Assembly (NCBI GenBank): GCA_965277805.1
Contig: OZ255842.1
Span: forward strand, 512,001-576,000
Length of the DNA: 64,000 bases
Direction: 5' to 3'
Source of the DNA: Candidatus Lustribacter sp.
Lineage (GTDB): Bacteria; Vulcanimicrobiota; Vulcanimicrobiia; Vulcanimicrobiales; Vulcanimicrobiaceae
The translations under genes and the position numbers were made by a program. Under the pieces are notes generated by a model. It was not told the origin of the DNA and did no database searches. It worked only from the letters and a program-made list of their open reading frames with translations. Below, in pieces: positions 56,534 to 61,465 of the stretch. Numbering within the stretch: the first letter of the stretch is position 1; every line of letters begins with the position of its first letter.

Positions 56534-56571
56534 AAAGAGAGTCCCCGGGGTTTGGCGAACGGAGCGTCGTC

Positions 56572-57462
56572 GTGCATCAGATTACGGGCCTTGTGGCCGG
56601 TACCACGCGCTTTCCCAGATACGATGCGGCAACGCTGGGCTTCGAAGAGTATTGGTATCCGGTAATGTGGTCGCAAGACCTTCGCGCGAAGCCCGTTGCG
56701 CTCTCGCTGTTCGGACGGCGGTTCGTGTTTGCGCGCGTCAACGGCGTCGCCCGCGCGCTGCCGGCGTGTGCGGTCGAGGAATGTGCCGGTCTCGTGTGGG
56801 TGTACAACGGCAACGGCGAACCGCGCCCGCTGCGCGCGCAAGTGCCGGAAGAATTGCTGCACGCGGATGCCGTGATCGAGGGACGCATCACCACGCGTAA
56901 GGGCGACTGGCGCTATGCAGCCGAGAACGGCTTCGATGAAGGGCACGTCAAGTTTCTTCATCGCGATGCCTGGCTGGTAACGTTTACGCACATTCCGAGC
57001 TACTCGACGGTGGCCGTGCACGGCGAGAGCGAGAACGATCCGTGGATCACACGCAACGTGTCGGCCGTGGGCTTCGAGGCCAATTATCCGGGGCTCGGCG
57101 AGTGGCCGAAGAAGCGGTTTTGGAAGCGTAAGAAACGCGGTGTGCGCGTGTCGATTCGCATGCCGGGAATGCTGCGCGTGCACTACGGCGACTGGATTCA
57201 TTTCGAGACCTACGTCCCAACCGTTCCCGGCGAACACCGCTATCTGCAGATCGCGATGAGCCACGCGCGCGGCTGGCAGGCGGCAAAGTTCCGGGCGTTT
57301 TACCGCGGCTACTTGTCGTGGATCTTTCACCGTCAGTTCAACGATCAGGATGCGGCGATGGTGGAGCTGATGCAGACGCCGCCCGAGCAGCTCTACCGGC
57401 CCGACATCTCCTTGATCGAGTGGCGGCGCATGTGTGAAACGCAGATCGGAGTGGGTTCATGA
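56572..57462 (+). CDS. CarAa/OxoO-like aromatic oxygenase catalytic subunit lacking the Rieske [2Fe-2S] motif
   Basis: LGFEEYWYPV, DWRYAAENGFDEGHVKFLH, FNDQD, PDISLIEWRR; no CxH...CxxH anywhere; SD GGAG 7 nt before GTG. Confidence 0.75.
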   Translation: MHQITGLVAGTTRFPRYDAATLGFEEYWYPVMWSQDLRAKPVALSLFGRRFVFARVNGVARALPACAVEECAGLVWVYNGNGEPRPLRAQVPEELLHADAVIEGRITTRKGDWRYAAENGFDEGHVKFLHRDAWLVTFTHIPSYSTVAVHGESENDPWITRNVSAVGFEANYPGLGEWPKKRFWKRKKRGVRVSIRMPGMLRVHYGDWIHFETYVPTVPGEHRYLQIAMSHARGWQAAKFRAFYRGYLSWIFHRQFNDQDAAMVELMQTPPEQLYRPDISLIEWRRMCETQIGVGS

Positions 57463-58958
57463 ACACCGTGGTGCTGAAGAACGCGCACGTCATCGACCCG
57501 GCCAACGATCGCAACGGCGTGATGGACGTGGCGATCGACGACGGCACGATCTCGTCGGTCGGTGCCGCTGCGGTGCCCGCGGGCGCAGAGATCATCGATC
57601 TCGCCGGCGCGTATCTCTCGCCCGGCTGGATCGACGCGCACGTGCACGCGTACGGAACGCTCGGTTTTGCCGATCCGGACAGCATCGGGGTCTACCAGGG
57701 CGTGACGACGTTCGTCGAAGCCGGCGGACCGGGTGTCGGCACGCTCGATGAGTTCATCGCGACGATGGCGGACCGTACGCTGACGAGCCTCTACGCGGGC
57801 GTGTACATCCGGCCGCTTGGAATCATCGGGCTGACGTTCATCGAAGACGACGTGCGCAATTGGCTCGACGTACCGGTGGAGCGCTGGATCGATACGGTCG
57901 CGCAGCATCGCGATCTCATCCGGTATCTCAAGATCGGCGCGTTCGCGAAGTACGGACCGGGCCCGCTGAAGCTCGCCAAGGGGCTGGCCGAGACGCTCGA
58001 CGTCCCGCTGTACTGCCACATCGGCGAATTCGCGGCGACGACCGGCGAAGTGGGCTCGCACGACATCTTCCGCATCGCCGAGGCCGGCGACATGATCACG
58101 CATCTCTACAACCGCAACCTCGGCGGCGTGCTCGATGACGACGGCCGCGTGCGCGACGTCGTCTGGGAGGCGCACAAGCGCGGCGTGCTCTTCGACATCG
58201 GCTTCGGCGGTTACAACTTCTCGTGGGACGTTGCCGAACGCGCGTACGCCCAGGGTCTCGTGCCGCACTTGATCAGTTCCGACCTGCAGCAATTCAACGT
58301 CACGGGTCCGGTATTTTCGCTAGCTAACGTGCTCGCCGTGTTCCTGCGGCTCGGCATGCCGCTGCGCGACGTGATCGCGTGCGTGACGGCCAACCCGGCC
58401 CGCGCGTTGCGGCTGACCGATCGCGCCGGCAGCTTGCGCGCGGGAGCGCCGGCGGATATCACGGTGTTCCGGGTGGTGGACGAAGCGGTCACGCTGGCCG
58501 ATTGTCATTCGGTGACGCGCACGGGCGATCGCGTCGTTCGTCCGGTGATGACGTACAAGAACGGCGTGCGCGTGGATGCCGACCTGGAACGCTGCCAGGA
58601 TGAAGCGAATTGGTTCATGCAGGTGCTCGACGAGCGCTGGCCCGCGGCCGCACACACGTTTTCAGATCGGCAACGCGCATTTCTGCGCGCACTGGTACCC
58701 GAACTCGAAGGGATCGACTGGCACTTGGAATCTGCGAAACAGCAAGACATCCGCACGGCGACGCGCCTGCAAGCCGCCGTGCACGCGGCGAAAGACCGTA
58801 CGGGCTTGAGTTTGCGCGAGACGCTTGCGACCGTGTACGGCTCTTTCATCGAGCAGCCGTTCTCGATCCAGGTCGGGCTCTTTCTGCTCCGGATCGAGCG
58901 CGCGTTCGCGCTCGAACGCATGCGCGAGATCGGTGCGAGCTCGGTGGTGCCCGTATGA
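57459..58958 (+). CDS. Dihydroorotase/deacetylase-like metallo-amidohydrolase with an extra C-terminal helical domain
   Basis: VIDPAN, SPGWIDAHVH, GVTTFVEAG, YLK, CHIG, ITH, ISSD, VTANPA, G.PADITV; about 120 aa C-terminal extension. Confidence 0.85.
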   Translation: MNTVVLKNAHVIDPANDRNGVMDVAIDDGTISSVGAAAVPAGAEIIDLAGAYLSPGWIDAHVHAYGTLGFADPDSIGVYQGVTTFVEAGGPGVGTLDEFIATMADRTLTSLYAGVYIRPLGIIGLTFIEDDVRNWLDVPVERWIDTVAQHRDLIRYLKIGAFAKYGPGPLKLAKGLAETLDVPLYCHIGEFAATTGEVGSHDIFRIAEAGDMITHLYNRNLGGVLDDDGRVRDVVWEAHKRGVLFDIGFGGYNFSWDVAERAYAQGLVPHLISSDLQQFNVTGPVFSLANVLAVFLRLGMPLRDVIACVTANPARALRLTDRAGSLRAGAPADITVFRVVDEAVTLADCHSVTRTGDRVVRPVMTYKNGVRVDADLERCQDEANWFMQVLDERWPAAAHTFSDRQRAFLRALVPELEGIDWHLESAKQQDIRTATRLQAAVHAAKDRTGLSLRETLATVYGSFIEQPFSIQVGLFLLRIERAFALERMREIGASSVVPV

Positions 58959-59794
58959 CCGCCACGGCGACGATTCCGCCGAGCAAGTACGCCGAGATCG
59001 GCGACGGCCTTCGCATTCACTATCACGAGGTCGGAAATGGCCCGGCGCTGATCTGTCTGCACGGTGCGGGCCCCGGCGCGACGGCATGGAGCAATTTCCA
59101 GGGCAACCTCGCCGCGCTCGCGGCGAACCATCGCGTGTATCTCGTGGACATGCCGCAATTCGGCAAGTCCAGCAAGCCCGTCATCACCGGACCGCGCCTG
59201 ACCGCGTTCACCGGCATGATCGAGGCCTTCATGCGCTCCGCCGGGATCGAGCGCGCTGATTTTATCGGCAACTCGTTCGGCGGTCAGGTGTCGCTGAAGA
59301 TGGCGATCGACTTTCCGGACCGCGTGAATCGCGTCGTGATCATCGGCAGCACGCCGGTTGCGATCAGCGCGATCTCGCCGATGCCTGCCGAAGGCGTGCG
59401 CCTCATCGCCAATTACTATCGCGGCGAAGGCCCGTCGCTCGAAAAGCTGCGTTATCTACTCTCAACGCTCGTCTACGATGCGAGCAATCTCAGCGAGAGC
59501 GTGTTGAAGGAGCGCTACGAAACGAGCCTCGATCCCGAGTTGATCAAGGTGAATACGGGGCCGCGACCGGAGTACGAAGACCTGACGATGGAGTTCAAGC
59601 GCATCAAGGCGCCGACGCTGATCGTCTGGGGCGCCGAGGATCGCGCCGGCCCGATCGACGTGGCGCTCTTCATGGTCCGCGCGATTCCGAATGCCCGCAT
59701 GCACGTGTTCAATAAGTGCGGCCACTGGGCGCAAGTCGAGTGCGTCGATGAATTCAACGAGCTGGTGCTCGCGTTTTTCAACCGCCCGGCATGA
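58955..59794 (+). CDS. Meta-cleavage product C-C hydrolase (BphD/MhpC/CarC/HsaD family)
   Basis: LHGAGPGATAWSNF, GNSFGG, WGAEDR, CGHWAQVE. Confidence 0.9.
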   Translation: MTATATIPPSKYAEIGDGLRIHYHEVGNGPALICLHGAGPGATAWSNFQGNLAALAANHRVYLVDMPQFGKSSKPVITGPRLTAFTGMIEAFMRSAGIERADFIGNSFGGQVSLKMAIDFPDRVNRVVIIGSTPVAISAISPMPAEGVRLIANYYRGEGPSLEKLRYLLSTLVYDASNLSESVLKERYETSLDPELIKVNTGPRPEYEDLTMEFKRIKAPTLIVWGAEDRAGPIDVALFMVRAIPNARMHVFNKCGHWAQVECVDEFNELVLAFFNRPA

Positions 59795-60120
59795 ATGCAG
59801 CCGGATCGTGGGAACGGCTGGAGATCGATCCGAGCTCGGCCACGTTTCCGGCGCCGGCGACCGTTGCCGGCGAACCGATTTGGGTGTTTGCGGTGGGCGA
59901 CGGCTTCCGCGGCGTGCAAGAGATGTGCCCGCACGAACGGCGCAGCTTGGGTGAAGCGCGGCTGGTGGGCGACGCGAAGATGGTGCGCTGTGCATACCAC
60001 AACTACACCTTCAAGCTGAGCAACGGCGGCGGCGTGAACTGCCCCGGCTTTCGCATCGCCGTGTACGCGATCAAAGAAGAAGACGGCGCGCTGTTCGCGC
60101 AGCCCGTACCGGCTAGCTGA
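59791..60120 (+). CDS. Stand-alone Rieske [2Fe-2S] protein
   Basis: CPH-x18-CAYH; 109 aa; ATGA overlap with the hydrolase. Confidence 0.88.
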   Translation: MNAAGSWERLEIDPSSATFPAPATVAGEPIWVFAVGDGFRGVQEMCPHERRSLGEARLVGDAKMVRCAYHNYTFKLSNGGGVNCPGFRIAVYAIKEEDGALFAQPVPAS

Positions 60121-61465
60121 GAATCTCCCACACGGCGGCGGCGCGCGCGAACAACTCGGCATCGCGATCGTGAAAGCCCAGCAATTGCAGGCCGAGCGGC
60201 AGCGATTCGGTTTCCAGCAGCGGTAACGACAGTGCGGGGATGCCGAGCAGGCTGCCCGGCACGACGAACGCCGGCTCGCCGGTCCACTCGAGGCCGACCG
60301 GCGCGGGGCCGGGCGCGCTCAACGAGATCGCGCCGTCGCAGACGGCCGAGAGGCGGCCGTAGAGCGCGCGGATCTCGTCGCGCCGCGCGATGTTCGCCTG
60401 GTACTCCTCGAGCGTCGTGGATTCCGCGATCGCGAGGCGCTCTTGCATCGCCGGGCTGAGCTTCGCGTAATCCATATCGTGCGCGAACGTGTTGAGCGGC
60501 CAGCGGAATTCCCAATTGTTGATCCGCGCGGAGAGCGCCCGCGATTCGGGCAGCGCGGCCTCGAGTTTCGCGACGCGGCTGCTGTTGTGGCGGTCGACGA
60601 TCGTGATGCCGGCGTTGCGCAGCATGCCGATGGCGACGTTGAGTTTGCCTTTGGCGTCTTCGCTCGCGAGCTCCCAGCCCGGCGTCTCGAGTAACGCGAG
60701 CGTTGCGGGCTTGCGCGCCGGCGGCGGCCGCAGCGGTCCGCGCACGCCGGGAAAGCCGGGGTCGCCACCCGCGCGGGCGACGATCTCGTGCACCACGAGC
60801 CACGCATCTTCGAGCGTGGCCGCAAGCACGCCGTGCGTGCTCTGGCTCTGATAGTCTACCGCGCCGCCGCGATTGATGCCGCCGACCGTCGGCTTATAGC
60901 CGACGCAACCGCAATAGCTCGCCGGTCGCAGAATCGATCCGATGACTTGCGTGCCGAGCGCGGCGCACAACATCCCCGAACCGACCGCCGCCGCCGAACC
61001 GCTGCTCGAACCGCCGGGCGTCCGCGTGAGGTCCCACGGGTTGTGCGTTTTGCCGGCCACGATCGACGCGAGCTCGGTGGTGACCGTCTTGCCGACGATT
61101 ACTGCGCCCGCCTCACGCAGTGCCGCAACGCTCGCGGCATCGCGGCCGCTGCGATAGCCGGTGAAGAGCGGCGAGCCCATGCCGGTCGGCATGTCGGCCG
61201 TCTCGATGATGTCTTTGACGCCGAACGGGATGCCGTCGATCGACGACCTCGGCGTACCGTCGCGATAGCGCTGCGTCGCTGCATCGGCGCTCGCGCGGGC
61301 GCGGTCGAGATCGATGTACTCGAAGGCTTGCACATCGCGGTTGATCGCGTCGATGACCGCGATGCAACGCTCAAGTAACTCGCGCGGCGAGTCGGATCCC
61401 GCGGCGAAGGCCGCCGCGGCGGTGTGAAAGGGACGAACGGCCGGACGTACAGGCATCACGTCCAT
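60113..61465 (-). CDS. Amidase signature family protein
   Basis: GIPFGVKD, GKTVTTE, NPWD..RTPGGSSSGSAAAV, GSILRPASYCG, LPLGLQL. Confidence 0.92.
   Translation of the reverse strand: MDVMPVRPAVRPFHTAAAAFAAGSDSPRELLERCIAVIDAINRDVQAFEYIDLDRARASADAATQRYRDGTPRSSIDGIPFGVKDIIETADMPTGMGSPLFTGYRSGRDAASVAALREAGAVIVGKTVTTELASIVAGKTHNPWDLTRTPGGSSSGSAAAVGSGMLCAALGTQVIGSILRPASYCGCVGYKPTVGGINRGGAVDYQSQSTHGVLAATLEDAWLVVHEIVARAGGDPGFPGVRGPLRPPPARKPATLALLETPGWELASEDAKGKLNVAIGMLRNAGITIVDRHNSSRVAKLEAALPESRALSARINNWEFRWPLNTFAHDMDYAKLSPAMQERLAIAESTTLEEYQANIARRDEIRALYGRLSAVCDGAISLSAPGPAPVGLEWTGEPAFVVPGSLLGIPALSLPLLETESLPLGLQLLGFHDRDAELFARAAAVWEILS

Follow-up and report, generated by a model that had tools for sequence, protein, structure and literature searches.

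A CarAa/OxoO-like oxygenase alpha subunit lacking its Rieske cluster subdomain, with apparently recurrent loss among its relatives

Introduction

Rieske oxygenases are generally pictured as homotrimeric rings in which every subunit carries both metal centers. We know of two systems in which these centers are split, each with a dedicated partner. In alpha-3 Rieske oxygenases, electrons are described as passing from a subunit's cluster through a bridging Asp to the iron of the next subunit (PMC7293229, PMC10380055); in SxtT this Asp is Asp161 (PMC7293229). Since the cluster of each subunit serves the next subunit's iron, no subunit uses its own. NdmC, part of NdmCDE in Pseudomonas putida CBB5, is reported as a cluster-less nonheme iron oxygenase whose Rieske domain lies on another polypeptide; NdmD is a Rieske-reductase fusion dedicated to NdmC, and NdmE is a GST-like scaffold (PMC4408171, PMC10380055). 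In the chlorophyllide a oxygenase (CAO) of Micromonas, the iron site is described on one subunit and the cluster on a paralogous one, the two having undergone complementary degeneration into mutual dependence (10.1101/2025.02.10.637544, PMC9615114). Paralogous alpha subunits are also reported to assemble in the NdmA/NdmB heterohexamer, alpha3-alpha'3 (PMC10380055).

Here we describe P0002, an oxygenase gene in a 64,000-nucleotide stretch of DNA (the window) that lacks the cluster-binding subdomain. Its best matches in sequence and fold are CarAa (3gkq, 3gcf, 1ww9) and OxoO (1z01), with which it shares family PF11723 and the Asp/His/His/Asp site; it differs from them in its 20 to 24% identity and in the absence of that subdomain. 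P0002 is a descendant of the CarAa family in which the Rieske motif is missing. Like NdmC it is an oxygenase without its own Rieske cluster, but it belongs to a different subfamily, keeps the base of the Rieske domain, and has undergone a loss that recurs among its relatives. Unlike P0002, NdmA and NdmB both keep their clusters, and the account cited above does not describe them as sharing one. Split Rieske oxygenases have thus been published already (NdmC, Micromonas CAO); the new part is repeated loss without a dedicated partner. In the full-text literature searched, outside which most subscription journals lie, we found no report of recurrent excision of the cluster subdomain in bacterial alpha-3 oxygenases.

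Results

The gene and its deletion occupy the following positions in the window.

56561..56564, + strand: Shine-Dalgarno-like GGAG, 7 nt upstream of the GTG start
56572..57462, + strand: P0002, Rieske-less CarAa/OxoO-like oxygenase alpha subunit; GTG start, 296 aa, no internal stops
56572..56760, + strand: residues 1-63, N-terminal helix and Rieske-domain base strands, which are kept
56758..56763, + strand: deletion junction L63/P64, cut at 56760/56761; 56 codons of the cluster-binding subdomain missing

A preliminary description of this DNA had proposed that P0002 cleanly lost its [2Fe-2S] subdomain in frame, with a jump near 56760, and both points were borne out. In a phmmer search of the PDB, P0002 aligned with CarAa (3gkq_A; E 1.4e-24) in two stretches, residues 14-64 on 18-69 and residues 61-289 on 122-371, leaving about 52 CarAa residues between them without a counterpart. 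The spacing from YWYP to GFD is 93 residues in P0002 versus 149 in its closest intact relatives, P0005 and P0007 (85 to 86% identical over the catalytic part), which corresponds to an in-frame loss of 56 residues. The missing piece, CPH...CRYH...VRT, begins immediately ahead of CPH and ends at the strand that follows the second Cys/His pair. Neither PF00355 nor the Rieske motif C-x-H-x15-19-C-x2-H was found in P0002 by Pfam search and motif check. The earlier estimate of about 58 missing residues had come from a more distant gene at position 840; the loss is real, but measured against P0005 and P0007 it is 56. The absence of a frameshift, the good ribosome-binding site and the stop overlapping the next gene, all claimed before, hold as well: the reading frame is open, and the stop overlaps the following ATG (ATGA), as happens again at the next two gene joints.

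Resemblance to CarAa and OxoO, also suggested at the outset, is reflected in a PF11723 score of 77.1 bits (cut-off, 24.4) and in Foldseek, where these proteins took the top ranks for the P0002 model (E 1e-17; TM 0.71 to 0.76 on the query). An NCBIfam search of P0002 assigned no family. When a profile of the Rieske-less proteins was run against the PDB, 12 of 14 matched sequences were oxygenases of 349 to 447 aa, and none was of about 300 aa. In the AlphaFold model of P0002 (25-row alignment; mean pLDDT, 78.5), the gap is closed over by two strands, with pLDDT of 94 to 95 across residues 61-80.

The intact catalytic iron site that had been claimed is present, at two places in the gene.

56935..56961, + strand: D122-x2-H125-x4-H130, bridging Asp and two Fe-binding His; all kept in 18/18 Rieske-less rows
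57349..57351, + strand: D260 (in FNDQD), predicted carboxylate Fe ligand; aligned with FNDDD of CarAa and kept in 18/18 Rieske-less rows

We take the Asp of FNDDD to be an iron ligand in CarAa. Judged from sequence alone, H125, H130 and D260 would form a 2-His-1-carboxylate triad in each of those rows. The spacing of D122, H125 and H130 equals that given for Asp161, His164 and His169 of SxtT (PMC7293229). Beyond the ligands, all 13 positions examined on the acceptor face (W113, R114, E118, N119, D122, the Fe ligands and E272-R285) are invariant in the 18 Rieske-less rows, and in intact relatives they vary little or not at all. The iron site alone may account for the retention of D122.

The deletion is not unique to this assembly. 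Among the best 120 of 295 homolog clusters, 13 are Rieske-less with a full N terminus and 105 have the Rieske motif; the Rieske-less count excludes P0100 and P0111, which are broken or cut, and seven loci truncated at contig ends. The same junction types recur among cluster members from NCBI, JGI, ENA and Logan, and proteins of other assemblies (P0125, P0122 and P0123) have an identical or near-identical junction. Logan contigs from three runs of one sample cross the P0002 junction with no differences and no gaps. This sample is possibly the window's source; the junctions in other assemblies are more telling. In run X5, from another study, two contigs flank the junction, neither with 31 letters on both sides, and these were not counted as bridging. 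None of the sequencing runs listed was of RNA.

We looked for relaxed selection using Nei-Gojobori dN/dS and found none in the catalytic part, which gave 0.082 against L002 and 0.095 against L003, within an all-Rieske-less clade, and 0.08 to 0.15 against L083, L084 and L004; the first two values carry the weight because more distant pairs include time before the loss. That P0002 is a decaying pseudogene or an assembly artifact is very improbable. Its retained N-terminal 63 residues do evolve faster (0.15 to 0.53) than the catalytic part, junctions are ragged among relatives, with a decayed remnant in P0011, and a frameshift interrupts the L003 copy around codon 50. However, catalytic-part values of 0.082 and 0.095 are close to that of the neighboring amidohydrolase (0.10, in a range of 0.10 to 0.36), every junction seen preserves the reading frame, contigs cross the P0002 junction unchanged, and several flanking genes of L003 are also frameshifted, as is typical of read errors. 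We conclude that P0002 is a real gene under purifying selection, neither artifact nor pseudogene.

The junctions vary in length and sequence, from ALPACAVEE in P0002 to ALSPGRREFPVDE in P0008 and RALIGSRPPSFGEAGVRAFAVEE in P0004, and that of P0011 is a CPLCG...CSH remnant. A tree of the catalytic part (30 rows, chosen from the nearest hits and cluster members) interleaves short and intact forms, with at least seven changes of state. Grouping 12 close Rieske-less rows cost 59 log-likelihood units (p-AU 0.001), which rejects a single origin. Counts of changes alone cannot separate loss from regain, but loss is the simpler explanation because the outgroups are intact and the junctions differ. On these sequences, the loss of the cluster subdomain is convergent, with several putatively independent events among the relatives of P0002. 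More distant Rieske-less members are P0020, P0121, L017, P0167 and P0259, along with the fragments P0199, P0284 and P0309. In P0121/P0103 and in P0350/P0390, both members have longest contigs of one length (2515 and 3465, respectively), a hint of short and intact genes in tandem; agreement of this kind could be due to chance, and these pairs were not counted. When the phylum was searched with P0005, 4 of 401 genomes matched, none with a close intact orthologue. Intact members of the subfamily often occur in pairs within one cluster (L117:2480-4787, L109:8792-11122, L013 and L014); the pairs in L117 and L109 are tandem copies with near-identical N termini.

A profile search of the whole genome found 118 oxygenase-like ORFs of at least 300 aa, 113 with the Rieske motif and 5 without. 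One of the five is half of a frameshifted gene; three others, beside P0002, form the L192-L194 set of sibling genes.

G000:C1:652296-653393, - strand: Rieske-less, LigXa/phthalate-dioxygenase-like
G000:C1:3206108-3207388, + strand: Rieske-less, LigXa/phthalate-dioxygenase-like
G000:C1:3948984-3950117, - strand: Rieske-less, LigXa/phthalate-dioxygenase-like

The LigXa-type call rests on homologs for C1:3948984 and on similarity to the gene at 840 for C1:652296 and C1:3206108. All three lack the same 54 to 55 residues, and each has Rieske-less orthologues within the genus (dN/dS, 0.012 to 0.09). Intact orthologues exist for two of the three, with 86 to 96% catalytic identity; all three genes have intact paralogues, which are 54 to 59% identical. 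For the 3949-kb gene, the deletion occurs in 7 of the 120 clusters listed, with several junctions, and a quick tree of 32 rows contains five changes of state. P0410 and P0430 are Rieske-less and group with the genome's intact gene C1:1556487, and the loss can thus affect either gene of a paralogous pair. In P0425, a full-length oxygenase, the first Rieske Cys is replaced by Ser, possibly an early stage of loss. A further oxygenase gene, G000:C1:1081561-1083098 (- strand), is split by a frameshift after the Rieske motif.

P0002 heads a translationally coupled run, which faces a convergent amidase.

57459..58958, + strand: amidohydrolase/deacetylase-family metallohydrolase, EF_0837/Atu3266-like, translationally coupled
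58955..59794, + strand: HsaD/BphD-like meta-cleavage-product hydrolase, scoring below family cut-offs
59791..60120, + strand: stand-alone Rieske ferredoxin, CPH-x16..CAYH, CarAc-like by profile
60113..61465, - strand: amidase, convergent; in L002 and L003 it adjoins the cluster, and in L084 it has the cluster's orientation

A CarAc-like ferredoxin and a meta-cleavage hydrolase add to the CarAa-type likeness of this operon. From these hydrolases and the amidase nearby, the probable substrate would be an aromatic compound that is fused or contains N. All five distinct close loci (L002, L003, L004, L083 and L084) have the amidohydrolase along with the short gene, and four of them have the ferredoxin as well, L083 ending inside the amidohydrolase. 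We considered whether the amidohydrolase might be an amidohydrolase-related oxygenase served by the ferredoxin and found no support for it, its PDB matches being hydrolases of the EF_0837/Atu3266 type and 0 of 51 being such oxygenases. It also carries about 125 residues past the family models, whose matches end near residue 375 of 499; this C-terminal extension is conserved in L002, L003, L004 and L084.

Discussion

Because the subdomain has been lost repeatedly while the catalytic iron site stays under selection, the remaining subunits probably borrow electrons from another protein. Three sources had been put forward for P0002: the 59791 protein, a hetero-oligomer partner, or chemistry independent of a Rieske center. 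Circumstantially, the hetero-oligomer is the best supported, and feeding by the 59791 protein, though possible, gained no special support. We favor, at a rough probability of 0.45, a reading in which P0002 is a working catalytic subunit fed by the Rieske cluster of a paralogue in a mixed oligomer. P0002 has lost only the donor face, the cluster subdomain; its acceptor face is invariant, and purifying selection acts on it. That face would receive the cluster subdomain of an intact paralogue, most likely G000:C1:12168-13268, within a mixed ring or an open dimer, and the 59791 ferredoxin or the shared reductase of the genome would recharge the paralogue's cluster. With a compatible paralogue present in the cell, a subunit's own cluster would be redundant and could be dropped, which would explain the repeated losses. 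A Rieske-less subunit in a ring would, at a cost, leave one neighbor's iron unfed.

The candidate donor is the genome's one paralogue of the same subfamily, 58% identical to P0002 in the catalytic part, and has as neighbors an M20 deacylase, a 57% identical hydrolase and a class III extradiol dioxygenase. Members of the subfamily occur in 7 of 348 genomes of the family: four have the Rieske-less form, three have only intact copies, and none has the short form alone. All four genomes with the Rieske-less form also have a paralogue with the Rieske motif, one of these four copies containing a stop in an error-rich assembly. This co-occurrence is weak evidence alone because the genomes are kin of one genus, in which six of eight have the paralogue anyway; L002 to L004 add no further cases, as they probably derive from these genomes. 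An independent case lies in a different phylum, where G408 was the only match among 401 genomes of its class (Chloroflexia); in it, a Rieske-less copy and an intact copy are separated by 35 kb. In L004 a short and an intact copy lie 6 kb apart in one cluster that unites the gene sets of P0002 and of the paralogue, which suggests one pathway. An intact and a Rieske-less LigXa-type gene stand in direct tandem in G404 (L275:8359-10766), and their catalytic parts are 68% identical.

The lost subdomain, read from seven intact orthologues, is 70 to 79% identical to that of the genome's own paralogue, against 56 to 62% for the catalytic part; for two sibling genes the corresponding values are 76 to 91% and 54 to 68%. 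Rieske subdomains are generally more conserved than catalytic domains, and the contrast is therefore not specific. Mixed assembly would be the same mechanism as in Micromonas CAO. Unlike there, the donor candidate lies 556 kb from P0002 in its own operon and keeps both metal sites (DESHGKYLH, FNDQD), so there is no complementary degeneration. We sought a complementary partner with a cluster and no iron site, and P0002's subfamily yielded none. A Rieske-reductase fusion and a GST-like subunit were both absent from the nine neighbors scanned, and neither of the genome's two PF00175 matches is among its Rieske-domain ORFs. By analogy, P0002 would work like the acceptor half of a split Rieske oxygenase, lacking the partner features of NdmCDE or Micromonas CAO.

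A rather doubtful alternative to the paralogue is a free Rieske ferredoxin, the 59791 protein or another, that binds at the exposed Asp122 face and passes electrons straight to the iron, making the three-step chain one step shorter. The 59791 ferredoxin is co-transcribed with the Rieske-less gene here and in L002, L003 and L084 and is conserved (dN/dS, 0.19 to 0.37), and its presence before the loss could be what permitted it; NdmC, as described, offers a precedent for electrons from a Rieske domain on another polypeptide. A Tyr precedes the second His ligand in 16 of 27 ferredoxin-family rows, at the position of the bridging Tyr of oxygenases (Tyr76 in the Rieske domain of SxtT; PMC7293229), but it is absent in the other 11. 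Moreover, the best PDB profile match of the protein is the carbazole ferredoxin CarAc, with T4moC, another ordinary ferredoxin, also matched. The family occurs beside intact oxygenases as well (L086 and L117), equal lengths of contigs suggest that it adjoins the intact orthologues P0160 and P0165, and in L004 it sits in the operon of the intact copy, the short copy being divergent. Across four loci its association with the amidohydrolase is at least as close as that with the oxygenase: it adjoins the amidohydrolase in L004, L084 and L117 and lies one gene away from it in the window. No close homolog was detected in G408, which has seven other Rieske-domain matches; none of the other Rieske-less genes examined (n = 4) has such a ferredoxin adjoining, and no small Rieske gene lies within about 8 kb of the three siblings. 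A predicted complex of P0002 with the ferredoxin (alignments A3 and A2; Fe and 2Fe-2S) scored 0.00 against a mark of 0.32, a value weighed neither for nor against this reading. Given the CarAc match and the family's place beside intact oxygenases, the 59791 protein would most simply be the normal ferredoxin of a three-component system that predates the loss. All 27 family rows also contain a third invariant Cys (GVNCPG).

It is unlikely that P0002 takes no external electrons, acting either as an Fe(II) enzyme whose substrate supplies them, whether by cleaving a ring or by oxidizing an intermediate that had been reduced or hydroxylated beforehand, or as a nonredox or substrate-binding subunit. 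The loss is frequent and apparently proceeds without adaptation, the C1:3206-kb sibling having a dN of 0.021 against its intact orthologue and 0.001 against its Rieske-less one. Against the 118 oxygenase-like ORFs of the genome stands a single Fer2-plus-NAD-binding reductase (C1:2507366-2507953); PF00175 has one further match, PF14759 has none, and the small Rieske proteins number about a dozen. Nevertheless, the cluster subdomain is fully conserved in intact orthologues whose catalytic parts are 75 to 86% identical, so that in those proteins the same chemistry seems to depend on the cluster, and the unrelated LigXa-type lineages would each need the same switch of chemistry. The readings weighed here leave the remainder of the probability to other electron donors.

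What is surprising is that, with no dedicated partner, the subdomain was lost so often and so precisely and the products were kept: the same exact deletion arose many times, and a single genome has at least four lineages with it. We tentatively propose that, in bacteria with large oxygenase repertoires, the Rieske cluster might be a shared, swappable module, with unrelated subfamilies excising their own subdomain and plugging into intact paralogues or straight into a ferredoxin; such combinatorial mixed assemblies would save Fe-S clusters and require no dedicated partner. These genes provide minimal catalytic domains of natural origin, and matched pairs in which one orthologue has the subdomain and the other lacks it, such as L223 (intact) and the C1:3206-kb gene at 96% identity, on which mixing of paralogous subunits, direct reduction of the iron by ferredoxin and the need for the bridging Asp can be tested. 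They bear on the engineering of catalysts for C-H and ring oxidation, and on annotation because Rieske-less genes look like fragments.

Two further genes of the genome, G000:C1:2355268-2356410 (- strand; ENSALHFSFVH) and G000:C1:2048101-2049204 (- strand; ENLNNHAHVPFVH), keep the Rieske motif and lack the bridging Asp; from their sequences, they are possible donor-only subunits of other subfamilies.
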